Part shown: positions 5,247 through 17,698 of the stretch, one piece after another
How positions within the stretch are numbered: position 1 is the first letter of the stretch
Layout of the letters: every line of letters starts with the position of its first letter
Virus record (IMG/VR): IMGVR_UViG_3300032307_000516
Span: 1-64,000 of that record
Source: a virus
Strand: one strand, 5' to 3'
DNA length: 64,000 nt
Notes under the pieces: model-generated
Seen by the model: the letters and a program-made list of their open reading frames with translations, nothing else
What the model was told of the DNA's origin: nothing
Databases searched by the model: none
Position numbers and translations under genes: made by a program

Positions 5247-5483
5247 TACTTATTTTCTTGAAGCGGTTTAGAAGGTTACTTCACAACATGATAAACGCAG
5301 AAGGATTAGTTCTCCGGTTCTAATCTACACAGGTCTCAGTACTGCTATAGGTGAGGCGCTTCTATATTCTAAAGGATATAGGAGAAAAATCAGTAGCTCG
5401 GTTTAATTCACCTGACTAGAAATTCGGGAATGATTACCTCCCATAAGGAGGAACCACCTTTTAAAGATTTCTCAAGAAAGTAT
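5246..5483 (+). ncRNA. Y-RNA-like element 1 (long form)
   Basis: TTTCTTGA-AGCGG-TTTAGAAGGT-TACTTC ... ACCTTTTAAA-GATTTC-TCAAGAAAG. Terminal and inner stems pair; lies upstream of the TROVE gene. Confidence 0.7.
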
Positions 5484-5495
5484 TATTAATAAAAT

Positions 5496-5569
5496 AAACT
5501 CCGAAGCGGGAACAAGGATTACATCATTAAGGAAAAGAAAAACATCCTCGTTTATTATTCTCGGTTTTT
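5496..5569 (+). ncRNA. Y-RNA-like element 2 (short form)
   Basis: CCGA-AGCGG-GAACAAGGAT-TACATC ... ATCCTCGTTT-ATTATTC-TCGG. Confidence 0.65.
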
Positions 5570-5576
5570 AAATTAT

Positions 5577-5652
5577 TATTCTGAAGCGGGATAAAGAGTT
5601 ACTTCATATAACTTTGCACGAAAAAACGCTCTTTATCAAAATACTCAGGATA
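5577..5652 (+). ncRNA. Y-RNA-like element 3 (short form)
   Basis: TATTCTGA-AGCGG-GATAAAGAGT-TACTTC ... GCTCTTTATC-AAAATAC-TCAGGATA. Confidence 0.7.
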
Positions 5653-5659
5653 TAACTTT

Positions 5660-5696
5660 AAGGGGTTTGAACTACGGTTTAAACCCCTTTTTTATT
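5660..5696 (+). terminator. Intrinsic terminator between the Y-like array and the TROVE gene
   Basis: AAGGGGTTTGAAC-TACG-GTTTAAACCCCTT followed by a T-run. Confidence 0.8.
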
Positions 5697-5720
5697 GCGT
5701 AAAAATTAAAAATAAAATAT

Positions 5721-7367
5721 ATGTCAAGACTAGGCGAATTTGCTGACAAAAAAACAGCAATGCAAATTTTACAAAACTCCACTTACGGAGCACTAGGAGT
5801 AGAGAACTTCATGGGAGGGATATCTTACAGCTTATCACCTCTAAACACATTAAAGATTGTTGCTGCTTCTTCAATCTTTGGAGAACCACAATATTATAGA
5901 GATGGATTAGGTGCTCCTAGTAACCTTAGCACTATCTTGGACTATTCTATATTAGCTCCGATGTTCAAAGCAGAATCTGGAGCTTTAAAAGATAATCTGA
6001 GTGCTGTAGATATCTTCGAAGAAGCCATACAGGCAGCTTTAGACTTCGACTTTAAAGCAACATTGGATTTAGCTTTAGAACTCCGTAACGAGTACTATAT
6101 GCGTCTAAATCCAGCTGTAATATTTGTTAAAGCAAGTATGCACGAAGGTCGTCAGGAGTTCAACGAGAAAAATCCTGGGTACATGAAGATGATAGGTAAA
6201 GCTATTGCTCTTAGACCTGATGATTTAACAAATCAGTTCGAATACTATATGTATAAGAACGGAGGTAAAAAAGGTCTTTCATCTTTGGTGAAAAGAACTT
6301 GGGCAGAAAGACTTGCAGAATTCTCGCGTTACCAATTGAACAAATACAAGGGTAAAAGATTAATCGACCTTGTTCGTATCTCTCACGCTAAAAGTGAAGA
6401 TATTAATGAGCTAATGACAACTGGTACATTAAAAGTAGAAGAGTCAGAAAAAACATGGGAGATCTTAAGATCAGAAAAAAAATCATGGGAAGAGATTGTA
6501 AACACTATCTCAATCCCACATATGGCTCTTTTGAGAAACCTTAGAGGTATTTTTACTGAAGTCGAAGATCCTACACTTACTGCAAGAATTTTAACTCAGT
6601 TAAAAGGCGGTGTTATAAAAGGAAAACAATTCCCTTTTAGATATTGGTCAGCTTATAAAGCTGTATCCAATTCACAGATCCACCACAAACAACTTGTTTT
6701 GGATACTCTTGAAGAATGTTTAGACATCTCTGTAGAGAATATGCCTAAATTAAAAGGTAAAACGGTTTGTCTTTCTGATAACTCAGGATCTGCATGGGGT
6801 GCTTTCAATAGCGAATATGGATCAGTTACTGTAGCAGAGATTGCTAACTTGTCTTCATTAATTACATCACTACAATCTGATTCAGGAGAAGTTGGTGTAT
6901 TTGGGGATGATCTTTCATTGAAAGGAGTATCTAAAAGAAATGGCCTTCTTACACAATTAGAAGAAACTTCTAAAAGAGGTAGAGCTCAAGGAGGTGGTAC
7001 AGAAAATGGAATTTGGGTATTCTTTGATGAAGCCATCAAAAATAAAGTCCATTACGACAACATCTTTATCTATTCAGATATGCAAGCAGGTCACGGTAAT
7101 CTTTATGGACACGGACACACAGTAGGTAAAACTAAATTTGTCCACCCAAGAAAAGGCGGAACATACGTAGACGTACTTGCTATGGCTCAGGAATACAGAG
7201 ATAAAGTTAATCCTAAGGTTAATTTATTTACAGTTCAAGTAGGAGGTTACAACAACAGTGTTCTTCCTGAGGCTCTTTACAGAGGAGCAATATTAGCTGG
7301 TTGGACTGGTAAAGAACCTGTATTTGCTAAAGCAATTATAGACATTTGGGATTCAGTAGAAGCCTAA
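5721..7367 (+). CDS. rsr: TROVE-domain Ro60-like RNA-binding protein with C-terminal vWA domain
   Basis: Motifs ALLRNLR, QFPFRYWSAY, MIDAS-like DNSGS and IFIYSDMQ; 548 aa. Confidence 0.92.
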   Translation: MSRLGEFADKKTAMQILQNSTYGALGVENFMGGISYSLSPLNTLKIVAASSIFGEPQYYRDGLGAPSNLSTILDYSILAPMFKAESGALKDNLSAVDIFEEAIQAALDFDFKATLDLALELRNEYYMRLNPAVIFVKASMHEGRQEFNEKNPGYMKMIGKAIALRPDDLTNQFEYYMYKNGGKKGLSSLVKRTWAERLAEFSRYQLNKYKGKRLIDLVRISHAKSEDINELMTTGTLKVEESEKTWEILRSEKKSWEEIVNTISIPHMALLRNLRGIFTEVEDPTLTARILTQLKGGVIKGKQFPFRYWSAYKAVSNSQIHHKQLVLDTLEECLDISVENMPKLKGKTVCLSDNSGSAWGAFNSEYGSVTVAEIANLSSLITSLQSDSGEVGVFGDDLSLKGVSKRNGLLTQLEETSKRGRAQGGGTENGIWVFFDEAIKNKVHYDNIFIYSDMQAGHGNLYGHGHTVGKTKFVHPRKGGTYVDVLAMAQEYRDKVNPKVNLFTVQVGGYNNSVLPEALYRGAILAGWTGKEPVFAKAIIDIWDSVEA

Positions 7368-7449: not shown

Positions 7450-7728
7450 ATGAAAAATTTAAAGACATTTGAGAATCATAGTTTCGAAGTTTACGATTCA
7501 GGTTCTAATATATTAAAAGGATACGGAGAAGAATTCCCATTTTCAAATTTATCCGTGGGAGACAAATTAGTTTATATGGGAACTCCATGTGAGGTTTACG
7601 AAGTATCTGATACTATTATTACATTACAGAATCTAAACCAAAATACAAAAAGATTTACTGTGAATCAAAACATGTTTAATAAAGGCGGATTTATCTCTAA
7701 AAAAGATACTCCAGCTAAACTCAAATAA
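7450..7728 (+). CDS. Hypothetical protein with capsid-targeting-like N-terminus
   Basis: ATG at 7450 (MKNLKTFENH) preferred; the TTG at 7396 lies inside the terminator. Confidence 0.6.
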   Translation: MKNLKTFENHSFEVYDSGSNILKGYGEEFPFSNLSVGDKLVYMGTPCEVYEVSDTIITLQNLNQNTKRFTVNQNMFNKGGFISKKDTPAKLK

Positions 7729-7737
7729 AAATAAAAA

Positions 7738-7884
7738 ATGGCTAAAACTAAAACTATCGATTCTAGCAAGTATTACAAGCATAGTACTAAGAAAAAAAGA
7801 CCTGGAATTCATTCCAAGTGTAAAAGTAGTGTAAGTAAGAATTCTAAGAACTATAAGAAAGCTTACGTTGGTCAGGGTAAATAA
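7738..7884 (+). CDS. Small Lys-rich protein ending in YxGQG (48 aa; not in ORF track)
   Basis: MAKTKTIDSSKYYKHSTKKKRPGIHSKCKSSVSKNSKNYKKAYVGQGK, A-rich leader. Confidence 0.65.
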   Translation: MAKTKTIDSSKYYKHSTKKKRPGIHSKCKSSVSKNSKNYKKAYVGQGK

Positions 7885-7909
7885 TAAGGATATATAAAAT
7901 AAAAAAAAG

Positions 7910-8260
7910 ATGAAACATCTAAGAATTTACGAACAATATGCAGAGGAAGTTATGCCAACGGAAGACACTGCAACTGATGTTCATTTCGAAACTGAAACTA
8001 CTGACTTTAAACCTACTGACGGAAATAGCGAAGGTAACTATATTGTTACTTTTCAAAATGCAGAAGGTGAAGATACAACAATAGAAATTGCTGGCGCTTC
8101 TGAGCCAGAATATGTTGGAAGTTCAATGGTAAGCAATATCGAGATGATCGAAGATTCAAGCTCTGACGGAAAAAAATATTCAATCGTTGGATATTACGAT
8201 GAAGTGCCTGGTCAAGACGGTGAATATGAGCTTAAAAAAGTACTAGTAGAAGAAATATAA
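7910..8260 (+). CDS. Acidic hypothetical protein with capsid-targeting-like N-terminus
   Basis: Starts MKHLRIYEQY; GATATATA at 7889. Confidence 0.6.
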   Translation: MKHLRIYEQYAEEVMPTEDTATDVHFETETTDFKPTDGNSEGNYIVTFQNAEGEDTTIEIAGASEPEYVGSSMVSNIEMIEDSSSDGKKYSIVGYYDEVPGQDGEYELKKVLVEEI

Positions 8261-8262
8261 TC

Positions 8263-8544
8263 ATGTCAATCAGAGTCTATTCAGGATACGATGAATTTAA
8301 GTTCGAGGAAGAAGAAATCTGCGAATATTTAGAATCCGATTTCTCAGATTCAAACGATGATGATGAATCAGATGATGTATTTTTTTATACTGAATCTAAA
8401 ATAGATTTTAGAGACGATGCTGATTTTTATATAATCTGTGATACAGAGGACGAGGAGACAGCAGAGGATATAGCTTCTTATTTAGGTAAGGCTAAAAAAA
8501 TAAATTTAGAAGATTTTAGGAAATCATTTTTTTATATAAGATAA
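8263..8544 (+). CDS. Acidic hypothetical protein
   Basis: 93-aa ORF directly after the upstream gene. Confidence 0.55.
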   Translation: MSIRVYSGYDEFKFEEEEICEYLESDFSDSNDDDESDDVFFYTESKIDFRDDADFYIICDTEDEETAEDIASYLGKAKKINLEDFRKSFFYIR

Positions 8545-8594
8545 AATATCTATATTTGTGAAACAAAACAACAAATAAGATATATAAAGTTTAA

Positions 8595-8654
8595 ATGAAA
8601 ACAATACTTAACATATTACCTTCAATATTAAGACCGTCGATAAGACGATCCTAA
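8595..8654 (+). CDS. Attenuator leader peptide 1 (MKTILNILPSILRPSIRRS)
   Basis: Rich in ATA, TTA, AGA, CCN and TCN codons; the stop codon overlaps the antiterminator strand. Confidence 0.8.
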   Translation: MKTILNILPSILRPSIRRS

Positions 8655-8732
8655 AGGTCCTGTGTTAATAAAAAATAATCATTAACTAAACCGGGACCTT
8701 TAAAAGTCTCGGTTTTTTTATGTTCTTTGACA
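8652..8732 (+). promoter_or_regulatory. Attenuator 1: antiterminator/terminator switch plus boxA
   Basis: TAAAGGTCCTG (8652-62) pairs with CGGGACCTTTA (8692-8702), competing with terminator AAACCGGGAC/GTCTCGGTTT plus T-run; TGTTCTTTGACA at 8721. Confidence 0.8.
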
Positions 8733-8749
8733 TGTTGGATTATCAAATT

Positions 8750-8836
8750 GGAGAGGTGGCAGAGCCTGGTTTATTGCACCGGTCTTGAAAACCGACGTAG
8801 TGAAAGCTACCGGGGGTTCGAATCCCTCCCTCTCCG
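8750..8836 (+). tRNA. tRNA-Ser(TGA)
   Basis: Cloverleaf, loop CTTGAAA, long variable arm. Confidence 0.95.
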
Positions 8837-8841
8837 CATTT

Positions 8842-8915
8842 GGTCCGCTAGCTCAGCTGGATAGAGCAACTGCCTTCTAAGCAGTAGGTCTCAGGTTCGA
8901 ATCCTGAGCGGATCA
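8842..8915 (+). tRNA. tRNA-Arg(TCT)
   Basis: Cloverleaf, loop CTTCTAA. Confidence 0.95.
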
Positions 8916-9082
8916 CACAAATCCCTCTGCCTAGCGCTGGGTATGGATCGAAGATAGAATATGCCTCTACACCGTAGACAGGTAGGATACCTCGGTATTC
9001 TTTAATGATATGCACACTTATTCTCCAAATCGTTGGTTGGCACAGTTTGTATGTTCTGGTGATACTTAAAGACATACAATTT

Positions 9083-9155
9083 CGGGATGTAGATCAGTTG
9101 GTAGATCGCCTGGTTTGGGACCAGGAGGCCCCAGGTTCGAGTCCTGGTATCCCGA
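9083..9155 (+). tRNA. tRNA-Pro(TGG)
   Basis: Cloverleaf, loop TTTGGGA, C1:G72. Confidence 0.95.
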
Positions 9156-9158
9156 CTA

Positions 9159-9221
9159 CGGAGGCTGTAAAGTCAAACAGTGAAGAATTTAAAGGATGAC
9201 ATCTTTAAATCCCTCCGACCA
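9159..9221 (+). ncRNA. CCA-ended tRNA-like mini-RNA with Pro-like acceptor end
   Basis: CGGAGG/CCTCCG-A-CCA closing two hairpins. Confidence 0.5.
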
Positions 9222-9222
9222 T

Positions 9223-9296
9223 AGAGGCGTAGCTCAATTGGTTAGAGCACATGCCTTATACGCATGCGGTCACGAGTTCGACTCTCGTCGTCTCTA
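9223..9296 (+). tRNA. tRNA-Ile(TAT)
   Basis: Cloverleaf, CATGC-CTTATAC-GCATG. Confidence 0.9.
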
Positions 9297-9300
9297 CTTA

Positions 9301-9374
9301 GGTCCCTTAGCTCAGTAGGTTAGAGCAACTGACTCATAATCAGTAGGTCCACGGTTCGAGCCCGTGAGGGACCA
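9301..9374 (+). tRNA. tRNA(CAT), probably Ile2 (lysidine type)
   Basis: Cloverleaf, loop CTCATAA, ileX-like acceptor GGTCCCT. Initiator and elongator Met tRNAs are found elsewhere in the window. Confidence 0.8.
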
Positions 9375-9465
9375 CAAAGATACGGATGAGATTTCTAAAT
9401 CTCCTACTTACTTATGAAAAGAAGGATTCCGTAACTAATACCATATAGTAGTGATGGTATTGTCT

Positions 9466-9548
9466 GCCCGGATGTTGAAATAGGTAGACAAGACGGACTT
9501 AAAATCCGTTGGCCATTGGTCGTGAGGGTTCAAGTCCCTCTCCGGGTA
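9466..9548 (+). tRNA. tRNA-Leu(TAA)
   Basis: Cloverleaf, loop CTTAAAA, variable arm. Confidence 0.95.
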
Positions 9549-9553
9549 CAAAT

Positions 9554-9660
9554 ATAATAGTGGCAGAGAGGCTTAATGCTGAGCATACATAGAGTCTGGG
9601 AATGTGGTATGTATGATACCTATACACGGGGACTCGCAGGTTCGAATCCTGTCTATTATA
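9554..9660 (+). ncRNA. Non-canonical tRNA-like RNA with expanded anticodon arm
   Basis: Acceptor ATAATAG/CTATTAT, D-arm, T-arm GCAGG-TTCGAAT-CCTGT; an 8-bp CATACATA/TATGTATG arm with 16-nt loop. Confidence 0.6.
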
Positions 9661-9663
9661 TAT

Positions 9664-9768
9664 ATAGGAGTGGCGGAAGCGTGATCTTTGCAAAGGTCCG
9701 ATAGATAGACGACAGGGTGTCATACCCGAGAATGAAAGTTCATATTGGTGCAAGTCCAATCTCCTGTA
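9664..9768 (+). ncRNA. Non-canonical tRNA-like RNA with D-loop insertion
   Basis: Acceptor ATAGGAG/CTCCTGT, T-arm ATTGG-TGCAAGT-CCAAT, GAAA-capped variable arm, extra hairpin in the D-loop. Confidence 0.55.
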
Positions 9769-9792
9769 CTTTTTTGATATATATAAAGAATC

Positions 9793-10164
9793 ATGAGTGA
9801 ACATATTAAGATATCAGGAATGGGTATAGAAATATACAAAAATGATATACCAGGTGTAAGATGGAATAAAGCTCAGTCTTTTGCTCAGATTCTTGGAGAT
9901 GGATGGAGATTACCAACTTTAGAAGAACTTGCTTTAATAAGATCAATAAGAAATATAGGTGATATAGGAAGATTTCCTGTAGAATATTCGGATTTTTCCG
10001 ATTCATATTACTGGAGTAACGAAGAACGCGAATTTACTACTAAAAAAATGATGGGAAGTAGTCTTAAAAGTACCTATGCTTACTTTTTTGATATGGCTGA
10101 AGGAACTTCTTCACACAATAAAAAGTCATACGAGCTTAGGGCTAGATTTGTTAGAGATATATAA
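9793..10164 (+). CDS. DUF1566/Lcl C-terminal-like domain protein
   Basis: GWRLPTLEEL and YYWS motifs. Confidence 0.75.
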   Translation: MSEHIKISGMGIEIYKNDIPGVRWNKAQSFAQILGDGWRLPTLEELALIRSIRNIGDIGRFPVEYSDFSDSYYWSNEEREFTTKKMMGSSLKSTYAYFFDMAEGTSSHNKKSYELRARFVRDI

Positions 10165-10167
10165 ATC

Positions 10168-10944
10168 ATGCCAACAACAAGAGCATTTGCATATAATCCA
10201 GCACAAGCAACAATTTCTGGAACTACAAATATAGGTACATTATGTGTAGGTGTATCTGCTTTAAATTACGGAGGAAATCCTGGTGGATTAACTTGGTGGA
10301 TGGGTCCGGACGAGGATAATTCTTATGTTATAGCTAAGGATGTGCCAACAGCAGACTTCCCTACTCCAGTAGGTAATGTTGGTAATGTACAATTTTGGAG
10401 ATGTTCTAACAACAGCTCAGAATTCACTAATCTTGTTACATTAATAAGTGGTACTACACAAGCATCTGCTTCTGCTGCTCAATCGTGGCTATCAACAAAT
10501 AATTATTGGACTAATTACACTAGCGGAGTAACTTTCTCACAACCTTTTGTAAATGGTACTGCACCAACAAATGCAGTAGAAACTGCTTGGAATACATTTA
10601 GAGCATCTTTAACAGGTTCTTATACACAATTTGTTGTATCTAATTCATTAGGGTTTAGTTTAACAGTAAGTCATGCTACTTCAGTACAGACTTTGGCAAA
10701 TGCACTAAGAAATGCAACAAATAATACCTCGGTAACTATAAACAGCGTAGTTTGGAGAGTAGGAACAGGATGTGGAACTCCTAAAATAGGTGGGGTTGCT
10801 GTTGAATTTTCCAACGTAGCAAGCTGTAGTTCATCAAGTACTATAGCATTTAGACCTATGATTAATAACTTAAACTGGGGAGGTATGGGTACAGGATCTA
10901 CTGTAGGACAGGCTTCACAAACAATGACACTAACATTTAGCTAA
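10168..10944 (+). CDS. Hypothetical Thr/Ser/Gly-rich virion-type protein
   Basis: 258-aa ORF with late-type motif upstream. Confidence 0.6.
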   Translation: MPTTRAFAYNPAQATISGTTNIGTLCVGVSALNYGGNPGGLTWWMGPDEDNSYVIAKDVPTADFPTPVGNVGNVQFWRCSNNSSEFTNLVTLISGTTQASASAAQSWLSTNNYWTNYTSGVTFSQPFVNGTAPTNAVETAWNTFRASLTGSYTQFVVSNSLGFSLTVSHATSVQTLANALRNATNNTSVTINSVVWRVGTGCGTPKIGGVAVEFSNVASCSSSSTIAFRPMINNLNWGGMGTGSTVGQASQTMTLTFS

Positions 10945-11096
10945 TGGAAACTTATAGAATAATAGACTTAAGAGTAACCCCAAATGAAATAGTACCAGGT
11001 AAGGAATCTGTTACTTTAGAAGAGGGACAATTATGGATAGACGAGAACGGAGGAGATTGTCCATTGTGCGACTATACGCTATTAATCAATGAATAA
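10944..11096 (+). CDS. Small hypothetical protein (50 aa; not in ORF track)
   Basis: TAATG overlap with the upstream gene; METYRIIDLRV...CPLCDYTLLINE. Confidence 0.5.
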   Translation: METYRIIDLRVTPNEIVPGKESVTLEEGQLWIDENGGDCPLCDYTLLINE

Positions 11097-11202
11097 ATGT
11101 AGATTTTTTAAAATAATTTGAAAAAAATACAAAAAACATTTTTTTAAACGGGAACTTTTCCGTACTTTTGGAGTATATAATAAAAAAGGAACAAAACTTT
11201 CA

Positions 11203-11292
11203 ATGAAACACTTTTTAAATATCGAAATGGATCTTCAGCTTCTAAAAGGAGACGAACGTCTTGAGGATACAAATAAGTGTCAGAGGAAATAA
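11203..11292 (+). CDS. Attenuator leader peptide 2 (MKHFLNIEMDLQLLKGDERLEDTNKCQRK)
   Basis: Core enriched in GAR, GAY and CTN codons; the 3' end carries the antiterminator strand. Confidence 0.75.
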   Translation: MKHFLNIEMDLQLLKGDERLEDTNKCQRK

Positions 11293-11362
11293 ATTTATAT
11301 AAAGATATAATTTAAACCTCTGATAACCTCAGAGGTTTTTTTGTTTTATACGCTCTTTGAAA
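11278..11362 (+). promoter_or_regulatory. Attenuator 2: antiterminator/terminator switch plus boxA
   Basis: TGTCAGAGG (11278-86) pairs with CCTCTGATA (11317-25), competing with AAACCTCTGA/TCAGAGGTTT plus T-run; CGCTCTTTGAAA at 11351. Confidence 0.78.
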
Positions 11363-11366
11363 TTAT

Positions 11367-11441
11367 GGTCCCTTCGTCTATCGGTTAGGACGTTAGGTTT
11401 TCATCCTAGAAAGAGGGGTTCGATTCCCCTAGGGACTACCA
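11367..11441 (+). tRNA. tRNA-Glu(TTC)
   Basis: Cloverleaf, loop TTTTCAT, encoded CCA. Confidence 0.92.
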
Positions 11442-11446
11442 GAAAA

Positions 11447-11520
11447 GGTCCTACAGTCCAGTTGGAGTGGACGCCGCCCTGTCACGGCGGAGATCGCGGG
11501 TTCGAGTCCCGCTAGGACCG
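11447..11520 (+). tRNA. tRNA-Asp(GTC)
   Basis: Cloverleaf, loop CTGTCAC, G73. Confidence 0.95.
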
Positions 11521-11618
11521 CTAAAACTTATGCTACATAGAGCAAAGCAGAAAGGTACGATCTGGTACACTATGAAGTACAAATAGAAAGTCAGATCATA
11601 AGTTTTAAAAAATTATAT

Positions 11619-11691
<73 letters not shown>

Positions 11692-11905
11692 CTAATAAGT
11701 TATTTGAAATATTTGCGAAAAGTTCGATGGAATCAATTATAGGTCCAGGGCACAAATCCGTGTGAGGAATCCAATTGATAGAAGAACCTTCTACTGAGTA
11801 ATGCACGTACACGTGATATCCATAGAAAAGTCCTAATAAGTTAAAGGCAAAGGAGTTGATAATACCGGTTAAAAACAACTTTATCTCTTTAGATAGCAAA
11901 TAAAT

Positions 11906-11985
11906 GCCCTCGTGGTGGAATTGGTAGACACGCTAGACTTAGGATCTAGTGCGAAAGCGTGAGAGTTCGAGTCTCTCCGAGGGTA
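11906..11985 (+). tRNA. tRNA-Leu(TAG)
   Basis: Cloverleaf, loop CTTAGGA, variable arm. Confidence 0.95.
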
Positions 11986-11987
11986 CT

Positions 11988-12485
11988 ATGAAAGTTATAT
12001 TTTTAGATTTTGATGGTGTTCTTAATCTTATACCTCAAGGACATGACTATTACGGAGGGATTTTTCACCCTGAATTTGTCGGCAACCTAGGTAGGATTAT
12101 AGAGGAAACTGGAGCAAAACTTGTGATAAGCTCTTCGTGGAGAACTATGGGATTGGAAAGACTTAGAATGATGTGGGAACATCGTTTATATCCAGGAGAC
12201 ATCATAGGAGTTACCCCAGATCTTAGATGGAGGACAAAAAAAGATGCTATGGAATTAAACGAAGTCGAGTACGTTAGAGGAGATGAAATAGAGTCATGGC
12301 TAAATCTACATCCGGAGGTAACTAATTATGTTATACTTGACGATGATGATGATATGTTACAATCACAAAGAATAAACTTTGTAAGAACATCTGATAATAT
12401 TAATCATCCTGATTGCATTGATATAGGATACGGATTAACTAATATTTGTTCTAACGATGCAATTAGAATTTTAAACAGAAAATAA
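11988..12485 (+). CDS. HAD phosphatase, Swiss-army-knife RNA-repair type (HAD_SAK_2-like)
   Basis: IFLDFDGV, ISSSWR, RGDEI and ILDD motifs; ATG at 11988 lies just after the tRNA. Confidence 0.85.
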   Translation: MKVIFLDFDGVLNLIPQGHDYYGGIFHPEFVGNLGRIIEETGAKLVISSSWRTMGLERLRMMWEHRLYPGDIIGVTPDLRWRTKKDAMELNEVEYVRGDEIESWLNLHPEVTNYVILDDDDDMLQSQRINFVRTSDNINHPDCIDIGYGLTNICSNDAIRILNRK

Positions 12486-13054
12486 TGAAAGTTATATTTT
12501 TAGATCATGATGGAGTAATTTGTCTTTCCCAGCAATTTGGTGGGCGTTACAAAAAGCAGACTAAAGCTAGAACTAAGCTTTCTCAAAACGTGATGGATTT
12601 TCCAGTCGATGCTAGATTTGATAACTTCGATAAGAAAGCTATTAAAGTTCTAAACCTAATCTTAGAAGATACTGGAGCTGAAATAGTTGTTTCTTCTGAT
12701 TGGAAGAACTGGGCAAATGTTGAAGAAATGGGCGAATATTACGAACAACAAGGTATAATTAAAAAGCCTATTGATTTTACACCTAGAGAATACACAATGC
12801 CAGAGAAACAAGAATGGCATCCAGACTGGGATTTAGAAGCATCAAGAACTTTAGAAATCCAAGAATGGCTAAAAGATCATCCAGAGGTTACTCATTGGGT
12901 AGCAATAGATGATTTAGATATGAGCTTTAAAGAGGTATCAAATAATAGAAGCGGTACTGGCTGGGGCTTAAAAAACTTTGTACACACCCCAAGTATCACT
13001 GAAGGGATTAAAAAAATGGGTATAAAAGAAAAAGTTTTAAAATTTTTAAAATAA
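12485..13054 (+). CDS. HAD phosphatase, HAD_SAK_2-like paralog
   Basis: IFLDHDGV, VSSDWK, RTLEI and AIDD motifs. Confidence 0.85.
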   Translation: MKVIFLDHDGVICLSQQFGGRYKKQTKARTKLSQNVMDFPVDARFDNFDKKAIKVLNLILEDTGAEIVVSSDWKNWANVEEMGEYYEQQGIIKKPIDFTPREYTMPEKQEWHPDWDLEASRTLEIQEWLKDHPEVTHWVAIDDLDMSFKEVSNNRSGTGWGLKNFVHTPSITEGIKKMGIKEKVLKFLK

Positions 13055-13137
13055 TTTCAAAAAACATTTTTTTATTTAAAAAATATATTGTACTTTTACG
13101 AAACTATTCTGGAAACAGGATATATAATTAAGAAAAA

Positions 13138-13245
13138 ATGAAAAACTGTAGTAAACATAACATCAATCGCATGAACAGTCAAATTAATGGCTGCTATCAA
13201 ACGGTGGCGTTTTGGGCTAAGGGGAAAGAACCCGATCGAAGCTAA
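13138..13245 (+). CDS. Attenuator leader peptide 3 (MKNCSKHNINRMNSQINGCYQTVAFWAKGKEPDRS)
   Basis: Codons 2-30 encode exactly the 16 amino-acid types served by tRNA operon 3. Confidence 0.85.
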   Translation: MKNCSKHNINRMNSQINGCYQTVAFWAKGKEPDRS

Positions 13246-13319
13246 TACAGAAAATCATAATTAGATATTTTGGAAAAGGCTTCGATTTAATCGAAGCCTT
13301 TTTTATTTGTTCTTTGACA
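13234..13319 (+). promoter_or_regulatory. Attenuator 3: antiterminator/terminator switch plus boxA
   Basis: GATCGAAGC (13234-42) pairs with GCTTCGATT (13279-87), competing with AAAAGGCTTCGA/TCGAAGCCTTTT; TGTTCTTTGACA at 13308. Confidence 0.82.
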
Positions 13320-13332
13320 TACTGGAAAAAAT

Positions 13333-13405
13333 GGTACCGTAGCTCAGTTGGTAGAGCACTAGACTGAAAATCTAGGTGTCGCCGGTTCGATTCCGGCCGG
13401 TACCA
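13333..13405 (+). tRNA. tRNA-Phe(GAA)
   Basis: Cloverleaf, loop CTGAAAA. Confidence 0.95.
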
Positions 13406-13476
13406 CAATACTAAACAAGAAATTGTCTCACTAAACTAATCATGTTTAGTATTACAAAAACAAGTTTAGTAACAAT

Positions 13477-13550
13477 GATCTCGTAGCTCAGTTGGCTAGA
13501 GCACCTCACTTTTAATGAGGGAGTCGAGGGTTCGAGCCCCTCCGGGATCA
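13477..13550 (+). tRNA. tRNA-Lys(TTT)
   Basis: Cloverleaf, loop CTTTTAA. Confidence 0.95.
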
Positions 13551-13556
13551 CTACAC

Positions 13557-13629
13557 ACGTCAGTAGCTCAATTGGTAGAGCGTTGGTCTCCAAAACCAAA
13601 GGTCGTAGGTTCGATTCCTACCTGGCGTG
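13557..13629 (+). tRNA. tRNA-Trp(CCA)
   Basis: Cloverleaf, loop CTCCAAA. Confidence 0.95.
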
Positions 13630-13635
13630 CTAAAA

Positions 13636-13708
13636 GGCTCTGTAGTTCAAGGGATTAGAATGGATCACTACGGATGATCTGATCCTGGTTCGAATCCAGG
13701 TGGAGTCT
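13636..13708 (+). tRNA. tRNA-Arg(ACG)
   Basis: Cloverleaf, loop CTACGGA. Confidence 0.9.
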
Positions 13709-13719
13709 CAAACAAATAA

Positions 13720-13791
13720 GGTCGTGTGGTCGAGTGGTTTAGGCACTAGTCTGCAAAACTAGTTATACTGGTTCAATTCCAGTCACGGCCT
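13720..13791 (+). tRNA. tRNA-Cys(GCA)
   Basis: Cloverleaf, loop CTGCAAA, U73. Confidence 0.93.
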
Positions 13792-13925
13792 CAAAAAATG
13801 TAAGAAGTATGAAAATAGTTATTGAAGGAAAAATGAAATCGTCGAATCACAGATTAAATGCGATTCCAGTTAAAATTGAAAGAAAAAATTCTCTAATCAA
13901 AAGAATCAAAAGATTGATTAATAAA

Positions 13926-14011
13926 GGAAAGTAATCTCAGATGGTGACGGGGCTCGCCTGCTAAGCGAAGCGTACCTTAATTGGTATTTGGTTCGATTCC
14001 AATTCTTTCCG
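13926..14011 (+). tRNA. tRNA-Ser(GCT), somewhat divergent
   Basis: Loop CTGCTAA, variable arm, G73; mismatches at stem ends. Confidence 0.8.
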
Positions 14012-14017
14012 CAACAT

Positions 14018-14091
14018 TGACATATAGCTCAGTTGGTTAGAGCGTTGATCTGATACGTCAAAGGTCGAAGGTTCGAATCCTTCTATGTCAA
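14018..14091 (+). tRNA. tRNA-Ile(GAT)
   Basis: Cloverleaf, loop CTGATAC. Confidence 0.93.
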
Positions 14092-14154
14092 CTTAAAAAT
14101 TATAAAAATGAAAAAAGAATTTGACAACTTGTAGGTTTAATTAAACCCTACAAG

Positions 14155-14346
14155 ATGAGTAAAAACACAAACAGAGCAAAACTGAACAAAGCAATGAATG
14201 GTAGAGAACACAGAAACATTTTAAATAATGCTCTTTATCCTCCATACAGTGAATATGATCACACATGGTGGCATGGAAATTTATCCAATCACAAATGGAG
14301 ATCATACAAAACCTGGAAACACAACAGAAAAACAAAATGGAAGTAA
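14155..14346 (+). CDS. Small basic Trp-rich protein inside the tRNA operon
   Basis: 63-aa ORF filling the tRNA spacer, ending KTWKHNRKTKWK. Confidence 0.55.
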   Translation: MSKNTNRAKLNKAMNGREHRNILNNALYPPYSEYDHTWWHGNLSNHKWRSYKTWKHNRKTKWK

Positions 14347-14357
14347 TTCCATTTTAC

Positions 14358-14430
14358 AGTCTCTTAGCTCAGTTGGTAGAGCGCTTGGTTTACATCCAAG
14401 ATGTCGGGGGTTCGAGCCCCTCAGGGACTA
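14358..14430 (+). tRNA. tRNA-Val(TAC)
   Basis: Cloverleaf, loop TTTACAT. Confidence 0.95.
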
Positions 14431-14433
14431 CAA

Positions 14434-14586
14434 GATTAGAAGCGGTAGATTTGGTTACTTCGCACTTTTAATGCCCGTGTCGGGGGTTCGAATCCCTCAT
14501 CTAGCTCCATAGCAGATCCTAGGATTTGTGCTAGATTAGCTCAGCGGTAGAGCAGGTTCCAAACCAAATCTAAATATTCTCTAATC
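14434..14586 (+). ncRNA. Y-RNA-like element 4 containing a circularly permuted tRNA-Lys(TTT)
   Basis: GATTAGA-AGCGG-TAGATTTGGT-TACTTC [tRNA 3' half, CCA, linker, tRNA 5' half] ACCAAATCTA-AATATTC-TCTAATC. Confidence 0.8.
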
Positions 14587-14592
14587 CTAATA

Positions 14593-14680
14593 TTGATTAG
14601 AAGCGGTGAAAGGGGTTACTTCTCAAAACCTTGTAAATTTTTGACCAAAAAACCACCCCGATTAAATATTCTCTAATCAA
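14593..14680 (+). ncRNA. Y-RNA-like element 5 (short form)
   Basis: TTGATTAGA-AGCGG...GGGGT-TACTTC...ACCCC...AATATTC-TCTAATCAA. Confidence 0.7.
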
Positions 14681-14684
14681 AACT

Positions 14685-14756
14685 GGGGATGTAGCTCAGC
14701 GGTAGAGCTCCCGACTGTTAATCGGTAGGTCGCTGGTTCGAATCCAGCCTTCCCCG
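14685..14756 (+). tRNA. tRNA-Asn(GTT)
   Basis: Cloverleaf, loop CTGTTAA, G73. Confidence 0.92.
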
Positions 14757-14792
14757 CAATTCAGAGTGTTGAGCAATTGGTTGCTCAGCTGA
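14756..14792 (+). repeat. Truncated duplicate of the tRNA-Tyr 5' half (direct repeat of 15940-15976)
   Basis: GCAATTCAGAGTGTTGAGCAATTGGTTGCTCAGCTGA versus GCACTTCGGAGTGTTGAGCAATTGGCTGCTCAGCTGA (3 mismatches). Confidence 0.85.
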
Positions 14793-14829
14793 TAAAAGAA
14801 TATATTATATTTAGATTCAATTTTAAGTT

Positions 14830-15765
14830 ATGACAGGATACCATATATACTACCAAACATCAGAAGATGGAGAATATGAGCAAATAAATTATTTAGTTCA
14901 ATTAGCTTCAATTTTAAATTGGAAAAAGAATTATGGCCCCATCAAATTGTATTGTAACCAAAGATTTCTAGAGTCTATATCCAAATATGGAATTGATAAA
15001 GAATATGATTTTATTGATACTGAGTATTTAGAATCAGTTCCATATAAAGATAGTATGTCGACATTTTGGAGCTTTTGCAAAATTTATGTCGCTAAAAAGA
15101 TTGTCGAAACTGAATCGGAATTTTGTATTTTAGATACTGATTTATGGATTCAAGCGCCTGACTTATTAAGTCAAGAACATGATTTAGTTTTACATCACGC
15201 TGAAGCTTATGATCTAAATTATGATCGCAACCCATATCCAGATCCTAGAAATTGGTTAATTGAGTCAGAGATAGAAGAATATGATTGGAATACCTCTCCC
15301 GCAAATTGCGCGATATTGTATTTTAAAAATAAAAGTAAAGAGTTAATAGATGCTTGGTATGAATTTGCAATTAAAATAGTAGAGCGTCATAAAGATAATA
15401 ATACAGAACCGAATTTGCGTTGCGGTACTATTTTTATCGAGCAACGTCTATTACCTACAATAGCAAAGAAAATGGGTATATCAATGACGGTCGTGTCTCC
15501 TTGTACTTATTTAACTTGGATACCAGCTTCATTGGCTGATGGGCGGGAATGGAGGCCTTCATTAGATTATTCAGAACGATCTTTATATATTGGTTCTAAT
15601 ATTAAACATGTATGGGGAGCAAAAAAGTTTTATTCTGAAAATTGGATTCGGGAGTTAATAATTGACAATGCTATGATAGGAATTAATTTAGTTCAGAATC
15701 AAGAAAGAAAGTATTTTAAGTTATACAGTGATGTGCATGAAGTGCATCCAAAAAAATATATTTAA
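14830..15765 (+). CDS. Putative GT-A fold nucleotide-diphospho-sugar transferase
   Basis: FWSFCKIY...ILDTDLW (DxD), NCAIL, IFIEQRLL and HVWG motifs. Confidence 0.65.
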   Translation: MTGYHIYYQTSEDGEYEQINYLVQLASILNWKKNYGPIKLYCNQRFLESISKYGIDKEYDFIDTEYLESVPYKDSMSTFWSFCKIYVAKKIVETESEFCILDTDLWIQAPDLLSQEHDLVLHHAEAYDLNYDRNPYPDPRNWLIESEIEEYDWNTSPANCAILYFKNKSKELIDAWYEFAIKIVERHKDNNTEPNLRCGTIFIEQRLLPTIAKKMGISMTVVSPCTYLTWIPASLADGREWRPSLDYSERSLYIGSNIKHVWGAKKFYSENWIRELIIDNAMIGINLVQNQERKYFKLYSDVHEVHPKKYI

Positions 15766-15851
15766 AATAAATTAAAAAATATTTGGTACTTACAAATGGT
15801 AACACCTTATATTTATATATAGTTAAAAAGAAATAGTTCTTTAAAAATATT

Positions 15852-15940
15852 GGAAGGGTGACAGAGTTGGTCTATCGCGCCGGTCTTGAAAACCGGTGAA
15901 CTCGAAAGGGTTCAGTGAGTTCGAATCCAACCTTCCCTCG
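15852..15940 (+). pseudogene. Degenerate tRNA-Ser(TGA)
   Basis: Anticodon and variable arms intact, but the T-stem and acceptor 3' strand are out of register. Confidence 0.7.
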
Positions 15941-15945
15941 CACTT

Positions 15946-16030
15946 CGGAGTGTTGAGCAATTGGCTGCTCAGCTGACTGTAAATCAGCCGCCTTACGGCA
16001 TTGGGGGTTCGAATCCCTCCGCTCCGACCA
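15946..16030 (+). tRNA. tRNA-Tyr(GTA) with C1:G72
   Basis: CGGAGTG/CGCTCCG-A-CCA, loop CTGTAAA, variable arm. Confidence 0.92.
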
Positions 16031-16033
16031 AAT

Positions 16034-16108
16034 GCAGGTATCGTATAACGGTCATTACTTCTGACTTCCAATCAGAAGATCTCGGTTCGATTCCGGGTAC
16101 CTGCTCCA
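16034..16108 (+). tRNA. tRNA-Gly(TCC)
   Basis: Cloverleaf, loop CTTCCAA, U73, CCA. Confidence 0.93.
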
Positions 16109-16111
16109 AAT

Positions 16112-16151
16112 GCCGGGTGATCCTCTCGTTGAATCACGAGAGCCGGCTCCA
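16112..16151 (+). ncRNA. CCA-ended 12-bp minihelix (tRNA top-half mimic)
   Basis: GCCGG-gtgatc-CTCTCGT-tgaatc-ACGAGAG-CCGGC-T-CCA. Confidence 0.55.
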
Positions 16152-16152
16152 C

Positions 16153-16226
16153 GGGGGATTAGCTCAGTTGGCTAGAGTACTTGCCTTGCACGCAAGGGGT
16201 CATCGGTTCGAATCCGATATCCTCCA
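16153..16226 (+). tRNA. tRNA-Ala(TGC)
   Basis: Cloverleaf, G3:U70, loop CTTGCAC. Confidence 0.95.
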
Positions 16227-16235
16227 CTTTTATAT

Positions 16236-16308
16236 GGCGAGTTAGCTCAGTTGGTAGAGCGTCGGAATCATACCCCGAAGGTCGGCAGTTCGAACCTGCC
16301 ACTCGCTA
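16236..16308 (+). tRNA. tRNA-Met(CAT), elongator
   Basis: Cloverleaf, loop ATCATAC. Confidence 0.88.
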
Positions 16309-16310
16309 CT

Positions 16311-16387
16311 GTGACGGTAGCTCAGTTGGTTAGAGCGTCTGATTGTGGTTCAGAAGGTCGGGGGTTCGATTCCCCTCTGTCACCCCA
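16311..16387 (+). tRNA. tRNA-His(GTG)
   Basis: Cloverleaf, loop TTGTGGT, C73, CCA; the -1 base is T rather than G. Confidence 0.92.
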
Positions 16388-16388
16388 T

Positions 16389-16461
16389 GCCTTTGTAGCT
16401 CAGCTGGTAGAGCGCTTCACTTGTAATGAAGATGTCGCAGGTTCGATCCCTGTCAAAGGCT
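16389..16461 (+). tRNA. tRNA-Thr(TGT)
   Basis: Cloverleaf, loop CTTGTAA. Confidence 0.95.
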
Positions 16462-16467
16462 CTATAA

Positions 16468-16540
16468 TGTCCTGTGGTGTAATTGGCAACACGTCTGATT
16501 TTGGTTCAGAAGAGTCCAGGTTCGAGCCCTGGCGGGACAT
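16468..16540 (+). tRNA. tRNA-Gln(TTG)
   Basis: Cloverleaf, loop TTTTGGT. Confidence 0.93.
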
Positions 16541-16586
16541 CTAAAAAATAAGATAAATACAATAACCAGTATGTAAAAATAGAGCT

Positions 16587-17075
16587 ATGAAAGTGCTAGT
16601 ATTAAATAATGACTTTACGCCTATAAGCGTTACCGATTTTGCCCGGGGATTTAAGCTTGTATATAAAGGTAAAGCAGAAATTTTAGAGCACGATGAACAA
16701 AACCCAATTGTTACTGATCAAAGCACCTACAAAAGACCATCAGTAATTCGACTTCTAAAGTATGTTGTTTTGCCTTTCAAAAAGCTAAAACCTACAAGGG
16801 AAAATATCTTTAAAAGAGATGAGATGAAATGTATCTATTGTGATACATCAAAAAATCTCACAATAGATCACGTTTTTCCCAGATCTAGAGGTGGTGGTAA
16901 CACATGGGAAAATTTAGCTACATGCTGTTCAAAATGTAACGGTAGAAAAGGAGATAGAACCCCGGAAGAAGCCGGAATGAAAATGAGACAAAAGCCATTT
17001 AAACCCGGATATGGCTATTTCATAAGGAATTTTTCCAAAGGAATAGATGTGTGGACAGCATATCTTCCAGATTAA
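16587..17075 (+). CDS. HNH endonuclease (McrA-like)
   Basis: CIYC...LTIDHVFPRSRGGGNTWENLATCCSKCN. Confidence 0.92.
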   Translation: MKVLVLNNDFTPISVTDFARGFKLVYKGKAEILEHDEQNPIVTDQSTYKRPSVIRLLKYVVLPFKKLKPTRENIFKRDEMKCIYCDTSKNLTIDHVFPRSRGGGNTWENLATCCSKCNGRKGDRTPEEAGMKMRQKPFKPGYGYFIRNFSKGIDVWTAYLPD

Positions 17076-17146
17076 TAATTTATAGGAATCGTTTTTTTTA
17101 TTCTAGAAGTTTCTATATTTTTATCATAACCAAAAATGTAAAATAT

Positions 17147-17698
17147 ATGAAATACTATTTAATCATCCTATTATCAGCATTTATAGGTTTTAATTCTTTC
17201 TCACAAAGTGCTATAGAAAAAGAGTTATTAAATCAGCTTAATGTTTATCGTAAAAGCAAAGGTTTAGGACCTATGTCTATCGATGCAAAATTATACGATG
17301 TAGCATTATATCATTCTAGATACTTAGAACAATGCGCAATAGTAGGACATAATACACATTATGATAAATTGCCTCACGATGAGCAGTTCGATATCAAAAA
17401 CCACAAAGAAATGAATACAGATCTTCGTGCTGCGATGTATCCAGATGGAAATATGTACGGGGAAATATCAATGCAATCTTTTTTAATCGATTCGACTGCT
17501 AATGTTACTAAAATATGTAAATCAATAATCGATCAATTCGCAGGGTCTCCAAATCACAAAGAAATCATGGTTACAGATTTTGGTACGGATAAAAGATTAA
17601 AACCAATTGTGGGTATTTCAGTAATACAGGTAAAATGCGATATTCCAGGAAACTATAAGTATGTCGTAAATATAGATTTCGGGGTTATTACTTTTTAA
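17147..17698 (+). CDS. Secreted CAP/SCP-domain protein
   Basis: Signal peptide from ATG 17147; LNVYRKSKGL, HSRY and SPNHKEIM motifs. Confidence 0.75.
   Translation: MKYYLIILLSAFIGFNSFSQSAIEKELLNQLNVYRKSKGLGPMSIDAKLYDVALYHSRYLEQCAIVGHNTHYDKLPHDEQFDIKNHKEMNTDLRAAMYPDGNMYGEISMQSFLIDSTANVTKICKSIIDQFAGSPNHKEIMVTDFGTDKRLKPIVGISVIQVKCDIPGNYKYVVNIDFGVITF

Follow-up and report, generated by a model that had tools for sequence, protein, structure and literature searches.

The window analyzed here comprises the first 64,000 nucleotides (nt) of a 72-kilobase (kb) virus contig (IMG/VR record IMGVR_UViG_3300032307_000516, positions 1 to 64,000), whose relatives are represented by contigs of 150 to 320 kb. 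It contains 26 transfer RNA (tRNA) genes predicted by ARAGORN, all on the plus strand and grouped in four clusters. Three of these clusters are preceded by a module (8551-8732, 11163-11362, and 13091-13319) in which a promoter box, a short ATG-initiated open reading frame (ORF), a strong intrinsic terminator, and a boxA element follow one another, after which the tRNA genes begin (Table 1). The short ORFs, referred to here as leaders, are enriched in codons read by the tRNAs of the operons that they precede, and the modules are interpreted below as probable ribosome-mediated attenuators of tRNA transcription. This layout had been described in a first-pass annotation made from the letters alone, and the same anatomy was found three times. 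The three tRNA operons of that annotation correspond to the three leader-bearing modules, but the genome holds four tRNA units, the fourth cluster having neither leader nor terminator.

Table 1. Positions in the window of the parts of the three leader modules and of the tRNA clusters
Feature	Position	Strand	Remarks
Module 1 promoter box (TAnnTTTG)	8551..8558	+	Box and the bases after it invariant in 7/7 aligned relatives
Leader ORF 1, 19 codons, MKTILNILPSILRPSIRRS	8595..8654	+	Contains segment 1 (8608-8622)
Module 1 segment 2 (antiterminator strand)	8653..8668	+	Overlaps the stop codon; pairs with 8688-8701 in the nascent-RNA fold
Module 1 intrinsic terminator	8688..8722	+	Stem 8688-8715 plus T run
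Module 1 boxA, GTTCTTTGACA	8722..8732	+	rrn-type
tRNA operon 1	8750..9549	+	Ser-tga, Arg-tct, Pro-tgg, Ile-tat, Met/Ile2-cat, Leu-taa (ARAGORN)
Module 2 -7 promoter box, TACTTTTG	11163..11170	+	TTTG invariant in 9/9 relatives
Leader ORF 2, 29 codons, MKHFLNIEMDLQLLKGDERLEDTNKCQRK	11203..11292	+	Segment 2 at 11277-11287; core (E)DDLLED conserved
Module 2 intrinsic terminator and T run	11314..11345	+	Stem 11314-11338
Module 2 boxA, GCTCTTTGAAA	11352..11362	+	
tRNA operon 2	11367..11986	+	Glu-ttc, Asp-gtc, Met-cat, Leu-tag (ARAGORN)
Module 3 -7-like promoter box, TACTTTTA	13091..13098	+	Aligns with TACTTTTG of relatives
Leader ORF 3, 35 codons, MKNCSKHNINRMNSQINGCYQTVAFWAKGKEPDRS	13138..13245	+	Segment 2 at 13233-13252
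Module 3 intrinsic terminator, 16-pair stem and T run	13271..13311	+	Stem 13271-13305
Module 3 boxA, GTTCTTTGACA	13309..13319	+	
tRNA operon 3	13333..14757	+	Phe, Lys, Trp, Arg-acg, Cys, Ser-gct (weak call), Ile-gat, Val, Asn (ARAGORN)
Cluster 4	15836..16541	+	boxA-like site 15836-15846, then tRNAs 15851-16541: Ser-tga, Tyr, Gly, Ala, Met, His, Thr, Gln

Architecture of the modules

A TAnnTTTG-type box, which we take to be the Bacteroidota -7 promoter element, was found 33 to 37 nt 5' of each leader ATG. The leader ORFs stop 21 to 33 nt 5' of the module terminators, and each terminator lies 29 to 35 nt 5' of the first tRNA of its cluster. The three strongest terminator-like sites between 7500 and 17500 are the three module terminators (10 to 16 pairs plus a T run). 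Because the total number of terminator-like sites in this interval (9) was no higher than in shuffled sequences (6.2 +/- 2.2), what matters is the strength and placement of these three sites. A promoter between terminator and tRNA was considered and rejected, as the intervening 29 to 35 nt leave too little room and contain no match to the promoter box in any of the three modules.

The bases immediately following the promoter box are common to modules 1 and 3, as is a motif 5' of the ATG, and an N-terminal NI motif occurs in the leaders of all three modules; judged by these sequences, they look like paralogues whose cores have diverged to fit their own operons. Other tRNA or noncoding RNA units in the same clade run directly from promoter to boxA to genes, with neither leader nor terminator, so the leader and terminator look like a cassette that was added between promoter and boxA. 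Cluster 4 is likewise headed by its own promoter-like box and boxA-like site. In relatives L001, L003, L005, and L009, clusters 3 and 4 form a single uninterrupted array, and the ORF that separates them in the window (14830-15765) looks like an insertion; used as a query, it returned one locus, and in relative L081 the same ORF is followed by a promoter, boxA, and Ser-tga. Operon 3 is interspersed with small ORFs and Y-RNA-like elements, and its tRNA-Ser(gct) at 13926-14012, which was called by ARAGORN at the relaxed threshold only and fell under the Rfam cut-off, is homologous to the Ser-gct genes of relatives.

boxA can also lie farther from the module terminator: in L013/L017 (~2290-2368) and at L172:5529-5608, the two are separated by a tRNA or a fragment of one, so that boxA does not come first in every module. 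On the reverse strand of L164 (~7105-7165), a type-1 terminator and boxA follow a leader of only 9 codons and precede Arg-tct, Ile-tat, and Glu; this locus may be a decayed or rearranged attenuator.

Codon content of the leaders

Leader codons were scored as in set when they are read by an anticodon of the operon, under either strict wobble or a relaxed rule in which U34 reads a whole four-codon box. Given the codon usage of the phage, in-set codons were enriched in leader 1 (14 of 19 codons, P = 3e-6) and leader 2 (12 of 29, P = 3e-3) relative to their own operons and in leader 3 relative to operons 3 and 4 together (32 of 35, P = 1.5e-4), whereas the leaders were depleted for the tRNA sets of the other modules (P >= 0.76). 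Compared with random stop-free windows of the genome, the P values for leaders 1, 2, and 3 were 3e-5, 0.043, and 1.3e-3, and among the 362 short ATG-initiated ORFs of the genome, 1, 10, and 4 reached the respective in-set fractions, with the leaders themselves counted.

The match extends to synonymous codon families. Leader 1 contains ATA (four), AGA (two), TCN (three), TTA (two), and CCN (two), with one CTT and one CGA as exceptions, and after codon 6 it encodes exclusively Ile (ATA), Leu, Pro, Ser (TCN), or Arg. Leader 2 contains CTN (four), GAR (three), and GAY (three), and its unmatched codons comprise one TTA and 16 others. Leader 3 uses ATY (two), CGN (two), and AGY (three). The families listed in the first-pass annotation are therefore present as stated in all three leaders, apart from the few exceptions in leader 1 and the TTA in leader 2. 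Codons 2 to 29 of leader 3 encode exactly the 16 amino acids whose tRNAs are found in the downstream array (probability that all 28 codons are in set, 4e-4; probability that all 16 amino acids are covered given that the codons are in set, 2.6e-3), and Glu, Pro, and Asp are confined to its last six codons, which constitute segment 2.

Alternative pairings of leader and terminator

In all three modules, folding of the nascent RNA up to the terminator loop (RNAfold) paired a segment at the 3' end of the ORF (segment 2) with the 5' strand of the terminator, whereas the full-length leader RNA folded into the terminator. The terminator still formed when 30 nt around the stop codon were masked as a stand-in for a ribosome. 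Both the complementarity noted at first pass and the folding check suggested there, with and without a masked ribosome footprint, thus gave the pairings of an attenuator, namely, a 2:3 antiterminator in the nascent RNA and an intact terminator under the mask. The duplexes of segment 2 and terminator strand in the window had free energies (dG) of -12.5 to -16.5, compared with about -5 to -7 in shuffled sequences (P = 0.003 each for modules 2 and 3); the combination in module 1 is identical to that of a relative and was scored there, and the duplex exceeded shuffles in all type-1 relatives. In module 1, the minimum free energy fold of the full-length RNA also contains a 1:2 helix between 8608-8622 (codons 5 to 10) and 8653-8668.

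The window and its relatives together provided 32 distinct combinations of leader and terminator, and the antiterminator pairing was present in each (dG, -12.5 to -22.9 versus about -5 to -8 in shuffles; each P <= 0.023). The distance between segment 2 and the leader stop codon is at most about 25 nt. Seven distinct terminator stem sequences were found, each matched by the 3' end of its own leader, which at the level of sequence amounts to compensatory change across subfamilies; in module 2 of L007 and L008, for example, the stem is different and the leader 3' end is altered accordingly. Alignment-wide counting of pairs across subfamilies was dropped, as MAFFT left segment 2 of the two subfamilies unaligned, and per-sequence duplex energies were used instead.

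Among 45 distinct modules with a terminator before tRNAs, 38 contain an ATG-initiated ORF of 19 to 53 codons that ends 18 to 34 nt 5' of the terminator. The other seven were not scored as short leaders: in four, a long protein gene ends at the terminator (L053, L081, L008:8744, and L101), and the remaining three are L106 (no ORF), L082 (contig end), and L164:7133 (9-codon ORF). The leader ATG is invariant in three alignments (7, 9, and 20 sequences). Within the leader ORFs, clear insertions and deletions (indels) measure 3, 12, 3, 3, and 3 nt; indels beyond the ORF boundaries are mostly 1 to 2 nt long (1, 1, 1, 2, 2, and so forth). In L008, L167, and L171, one inserted nucleotide close to the end of leader 1 shifts the stop by five codons to just beyond segment 2, so that the stop still adjoins segment 2. 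Loss of the leader ORFs in relatives had been named as an outcome that would speak against attenuation; the ORFs, their ATG, and the antiterminator pairing are kept in these uncultured relatives.

No Rfam leader family reached its cut-off, the sole leader-family match being Thr_leader at 8622-8722 (22.9 bits versus 55; E = 1). T-box elements were not matched at E <= 1 in 7500-17500, and the folds contained no Stem I or T-box-like conserved structure. Three freshwater RNA runs (shares <= 0.08) yielded contigs that consisted mostly of tRNAs of other organisms and were uninformative on transcript ends. One 401-nt contig from an RNA run covers 13231-13551 across terminator 3, with 20 differences; it is possibly of DNA origin and was not used as evidence.

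Leaders and tRNA sets in relatives

In a DNA search of 8545-16540 against GenBank phages, matches were limited to the tRNA level and a close relative was not found, and a protein search with the ORF at 12485-13054 returned a single match (25% identity). Relatives were gathered through this HAD-domain gene (80 IMG/VR loci and 80 metagenome loci), through a pattern search for leader 1, and from the tRNA regions of the contigs of three large relatives. Across relatives, positions of leader 1 interchange among ATA, TCA, TTA, and TCG and not among codons for chemically similar residues.

A matrix of six leader types and six tRNA sets was constructed with one representative per leader type, near-identical relatives being omitted. 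The true pairing ranked second of 720 permutations under the relaxed rule and first of 720 under strict wobble (z-scores on the diagonal, 5.1, 2.9, 3.4, 1.4, 0.9, and 2.9). The distant relative L172 (contig of L041) carries a 29-codon leader, MTRNTHTMSFTICSKWAEVIDIAMSRGVL, that is unlike those of the window. This leader precedes tRNAs for Ala, Phe, Lys, Val, Trp, Arg-acg, Cys, His, Ile, and Met and covers all 10 of these amino acids; Thr, Asp, Ser-tga, and Glu come next, behind internal boxA sites, and the leader contains these amino acids too. Its Ser codons are TCN, and Gln and Tyr, the tRNAs for which are located elsewhere, are absent from it.

Modules in Cellulophaga phage phi4:1 and other phages

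Three modules of the same design were found in Cellulophaga phage phi4:1, a cultured marine Lightbulbvirus that is unrelated to the window except in its tRNAs. Module A (leader MKIQRLHLQELEQPIISGGTGV; tRNAs Pro, Glu, Gln, His, Leu-tag, Leu-taa, Arg-acg) has 11 of 21 codons matched, 11 of them consecutive (P = 0.0026); module B (leader (V)QLTKTGITVIDKTKGARAYLGDTVIG; tRNAs Ala, Lys, Ile, Gly, Met, Asp, Thr, Val, Arg-tct, Met) has 21 of 26 (P = 0.00048); and module C (leader MKTNYCTYNNSNWSFSYDTGSVCTLGSDGLIG; tRNAs Tyr, Ser-gct, Asn, Trp, Phe) has 11 of 31 (P = 0.037). Combined, the matches to the leaders' own blocks were significant (Fisher, P = 7e-6), and those to other blocks were not (P >= 0.87). 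As the anticodons require, Arg is encoded by CGT in leader A, before the block with Arg-acg, and by AGA in leader B, before the block with Arg-tct. The antiterminator duplexes of modules A, B, and C compared with shuffles gave P values of 0.054, 0.024, and 0.006.

Leaders A and B are preceded by an identical promoter region of ~40 nt (L297:3040-3070 and 3985-4010), and the start of leader B is uncertain: a GTG is possible, and in the record the annotated start is a TTG farther upstream. In module A, the leader ATG is overlapped by a mini-ORF of 4 codons (ATG..TGA). The annotated gp076 was rejected as a leader, as it overlaps a tRNA-Ser-like sequence. A search of IMG/VR with the phi4:1 promoter pattern returned phi4:1 itself and one chance match, and matches to the phi4:1 leader region were limited to 7 Lightbulbvirus records.

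For nine leaders from the window, its relatives, and phi4:1, matched codons made up 135 of 185 codons at >=13 nt 5' of segment 2 versus 39 of 89 in the leader tail (Fisher, P = 4e-6), where the 13-nt limit reflects the size of a ribosome footprint. Pairing places a further constraint on the tail. Among phages of hosts from other phyla, none of three (Sphingomonas phage PAU, Vibrio phage D69, and Escherichia phage EcS1) had a terminator within 170 nt 5' of a tRNA. In the record of Caulobacter phage phiCbK, terminators are annotated directly before three tRNA blocks, and the 45-residue gp335, which lies ahead of tRNAs for Pro (two), Lys (two), Leu (three), Ala, and Ser (two), draws 31 of its 45 residues from these five amino acids (a count of residues only). 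Neither "attenuat" nor "leader" occurs in the phiCbK genome paper (PMC3556154).

boxA and the probable host

The sequence GYTCTTTGAMA follows the terminator of each module (8722, 11352, and 13309). At least 120 prokaryote genome stretches contain the 17-mer GTTCTTTGACATAYTGG, the module 3 form of this element; almost all of them are from Bacteroidota, with Pedobacter, Mucilaginibacter, Chitinophaga, Flavihumibacter, Sediminibacterium, and Niabella among the genera represented. In all five of the Chitinophagia and Sphingobacteriia rrn operons that were checked, it lies between the spacer tRNAs and the 23S rRNA, and what had been called a boxA-like site is therefore identical to rrn boxA of the host type. 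On the strength of this identity, the host of the phage clade is probably a member of the Chitinophagia or Sphingobacteriia, which would point to hosts for an uncultured clade of lake phages. In the phage clade, boxA comes directly after either a promoter or a module terminator, a position that fits, by analogy, a role in polymerase processivity over untranslated arrays. The pattern of a T run followed by boxA was missing from five of five Bacteroidota genomes holding boxA, and a host counterpart of the module was not found among them.

Neighboring genes and other features

Two adjoining paralogues with HAD_SAK_2 domains ("Swiss Army Knife" RNA repair HAD domain) lie between operons 2 and 3 (11988-12485 and 12485-13054). 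Relatives of the second of these proteins number in the hundreds in lake viromes (356 in IMG/VR and at least 502 in metagenomes). An ORF for a TROVE (Ro60-like) protein is located at 5721-7367, beside Y-RNA-like repeats. Because the HAD_SAK_2 pair and the TROVE protein lie in the island, an RNA-damage theme is plausible for it. Upstream of the TROVE ORF, a promoter-like box and a boxA-like GTTCTTTAACA (5236) open a noncoding stretch of 450 nt (5196-5700) that contains three gaagcgg...ttacttc repeats and ends in a terminator (~5660-5695). Two further copies of the repeat lie within tRNA operon 3 (14434-14680), and the repeat regions gave only below-threshold matches to Rfam YrlA (Y RNA-like).

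A 63-codon ORF between tRNA-Ile and tRNA-Val (14155-14346) would encode a very basic peptide rich in Trp and Tyr; a similar ORF precedes tRNA-Ile-tat in distant relatives L014 and L036, and it may represent a real small protein inside the tRNA array. Uncalled tRNA-like fragments with T-arm-like GGTTCGAATCC motifs at 9556-9660 and 14444-14560 (Rfam tRNA, 22 bits at 14444-14506) may be degenerate, split, or permuted tRNAs. At L007:8767, ARAGORN predicted a tRNA with anticodon tta, which would read the stop codon TAA and is possibly a suppressor tRNA; L008 has Leu-taa at the same place. At 823-3426, an 867-residue ORF contains collagen triple-helix repeats (Pfam Collagen, E = 8e-33).

Proposed attenuation mechanism and alternative explanations

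With fairly good confidence based on these sequence comparisons, the modules are considered to be trp/his-type ribosome-mediated attenuators that stand between promoters of host type and the tRNA genes and through which each operon would respond to the capacity for decoding its own codons. This reading, which the first-pass annotation had advanced, gains support from the ATG-initiated ORFs, the in-frame indels, the covarying antiterminator, the placement of matched codons, and the recurrence of the design in phi4:1, and these sequence-level predictions of attenuation all held.

The sequences show the parts of the modules and their conservation, the alternative pairings of leader and terminator, the match in codons, and a boxA identical to that of host rrn operons. 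From these we infer leader translation, stalling, termination, read-through, Nus recruitment, and a physiological trigger that would act as follows. RNA polymerase would transcribe a short ORF written in codons of the downstream tRNAs. A ribosome that reaches the stop codon would cover or unwind segment 2, the terminator hairpin (3:4) would form, and transcription would end before the tRNAs. If scarce decoding capacity stalled the ribosome early, segment 2 would pair with the 5' strand of the terminator, and polymerase would read through. The polymerase would then transcribe boxA and, by analogy with rrn operons, Nus factors would be recruited, making transcription processive over the long untranslated array. 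The net result would be demand-driven feedback on each tRNA set, so that a given set would probably be produced only while the ribosomes lack enough of it. Leader 3 would serve as a roll-call of the 16 amino acids of its operon, functioning as an OR gate. Cleavage by host anticodon nucleases as the trigger is a guess, the one hint being the neighboring RNA-repair genes.

Several observations weigh against this interpretation. A 1:2 anti-antiterminator is clear in module 1 only and is weak or absent in modules 2 and 3. In leader 2, 17 of 29 codons are unmatched, and the random-window P value is just 0.043. Matched codons mostly occur once or twice each, in contrast to the long runs of his and pheA leaders, and any one hungry codon may therefore bring only a small gain. 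Delimiting the tRNA set of an operon (gaps and internal promoters) leaves some freedom, and results under both rules are given where relevant. The proposed co-variation of leader and operon was found between leader types and for L172 but not within one subfamily, where a 37-codon leader is almost invariant while the downstream tRNA set varies: L018, L050, and L149 have no Asn, Lys, or Thr tRNAs, their leaders retain 5 Asn, 4 Lys, and 3 Thr codons, and just 9 to 10 of the 37 codons are in set. The type-2 leaders of L007 and L008 hold four CTN Leu codons, with Leu-tag ~4 kb away, and no enrichment was seen in the leader of L073, which has 53 codons (z = 0.9).

The leading alternative, unlikely as it appears overall, is a switch that attenuates but reports general translation capacity (ribosome availability, host shut-off, or global starvation), with the codon match as a by-product. 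Retention of a leader despite tRNA loss in one subfamily would be expected of such a sensor, as would the unmatched codons in which leader 2 and the first 6 to 7 codons of all three leaders (MK..LNI-like) are rich, and the only published regulated tRNA array that was found responds to general translational stress (PMC8421152). A general sensor needs no codon bias, however, and nine leaders from two unrelated phage lineages are enriched for their own sets and depleted for sister sets. The match further distinguishes Arg CGN from AGA and Ile ATA from ATY, and the matched codons are located where a stall would release segment 2.

It is improbable that the terminators merely end small genes or upstream transcripts, with the tRNAs being expressed from unrecognized promoters or by constitutive read-through and the codon match arising from chance or shared composition. 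Phage-specific promoters are conceivable from the sequence, cluster 4 has a promoter-like box of its own, and in L053, L081, and L101 the terminator of a long protein gene lies just before the tRNAs. The space between T run and first tRNA in the modules is nevertheless 29 to 35 nt and is occupied by boxA, the antiterminator copy in the ORF 3' end covaries with the stem, and the match statistics are far from chance and are reproduced outside the clade.

Slightly less probable still is a leader RNA with untranslated ORFs that would sense tRNA or protein directly (T-box-like or protein-mediated antitermination), its triplets pairing with anticodons. RNA-tRNA pairing would produce codon-anticodon complementarity equally well, and since mRNAs of Bacteroidota have no strong Shine-Dalgarno sites, translation cannot be recognized from sequence. 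Direct sensing would not account for the invariant ATG, for matched triplets in a single frame from ATG to a stop that is always within ~25 nt of segment 2, or for ORF-internal indels in multiples of three, and T-box and other Rfam families stayed under threshold, the folds having no Stem I or T-box-like structure. That the leader peptides are instead small proteins functioning in trans, with their composition selected for that function, can be nearly dismissed: the peptides are fairly conserved within subfamilies and trans-acting leader peptides have been reported (peTrpL), but swaps between relatives stay within the codon set of the operon (ATA/TCA/TTA/TCG in leader 1) and not among similar residues, and three paralogous modules that share promoter and 5' region have wholly different peptide cores, each matched to its operon.

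Ribosome-mediated attenuation of the kind favored here may be of wider occurrence. On balance, we lean toward the proposal that phage lineages unrelated to one another and with different hosts (giant freshwater phages with Chitinophagia/Sphingobacteriia-like hosts, the marine Cellulophaga phage phi4:1, and, from a partial check, Caulobacter phage phiCbK) gate tRNA genes by roll-call attenuators, such that any one shortage would induce the tRNA set that relieves it, whether the shortage stems from codon-usage mismatch, host shut-off, or anticodon nucleases. If true, tRNA supply would be set by measured decoding demand through a textbook mechanism acting on a class of targets for which no report was found; this would be a general and previously unseen feedback principle for viral tRNA supply, and the leader would be a readable record of the decoding shortages that a phage expects. 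A direct prediction is that recoding the leader changes the shortage that induces the operon, and culturable systems for this are phi4:1 on Cellulophaga baltica and possibly phiCbK on Caulobacter. The proposal also bears on the arms race with tRNA-targeting defenses, as the island holds RNA-repair genes (two HAD_SAK_2 genes and one for a Ro60-like TROVE protein).

Comparison with known systems

Phage tRNA arrays are usually regarded as constitutive or time-programmed supplements. No report of leader-peptide attenuation of tRNA genes was found in the full-text literature, supplements and most subscription journals being outside the reach of the search. The closest counterparts are the attenuators of amino acid operons (trpL, hisL, leuL, and pheL; Rfam Trp, His, Leu, and Thr leaders), which share with the phage modules a promoter-proximal ORF rich in regulatory codons, mutually exclusive antiterminator and terminator structures, a segment 2 at the stop codon, and an intrinsic terminator before the first gene. 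The phage modules differ in that their targets are tRNAs instead of enzymes, in their occurrence in a Bacteroidota phage, and in the rrn-type boxA after the terminator, and their leaders contain many kinds of codons, each present once to a few times, where those of amino acid operons contain runs of one. Multivalent attenuators are known from the ilvGMEDA leader (Ile/Val/Leu) and the thr leader (Thr/Ile), which respond to two or three amino acids of one pathway. As in the phage leaders, one leader with several kinds of hungry codons gates one operon, but the phage leaders list up to 16 amino acids, and the list is the tRNA content of the operon.

In the pheST attenuator (pheM leader) and the T-boxes of synthetase genes, charging or supply of a specific tRNA sets transcriptional read-through. 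These systems resemble the phage modules in gating a gene of the translation apparatus, but their targets are synthetases, the sensed tRNA is never the product, and a T-box binds tRNA directly without a ribosome, unlike the proposed phage attenuator. With respect to boxA, the nearest counterparts are rrn antitermination (boxA with NusB/NusE) and the boxA of lambda nut; the 11-nt phage element, extended to 17 nt, is identical to the element of the host rrn spacer. Unlike rrn boxA, it heads units of tRNA and noncoding RNA genes and follows a putatively regulated terminator; by analogy, it would bind Nus factors.

The trn array of Anabaena sp. PCC 7120 is silent by default and is induced under impaired translation, with RNA-repair genes co-regulated (PMC8421152), and it is controlled at its promoter through direct repeats bound by the repressor TrcR (PMC10272220); "attenuat" and "leader" (or "leader peptide") have 0 occurrences in the passages and term counts covered for the two papers. 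Like the phage operons, it is a supernumerary array tied to translation, but its control is exerted at the level of the promoter. For the phage modules, the proposed mechanism is of a known kind, and the target, tRNA genes, and the roll-call design of the leaders are new.

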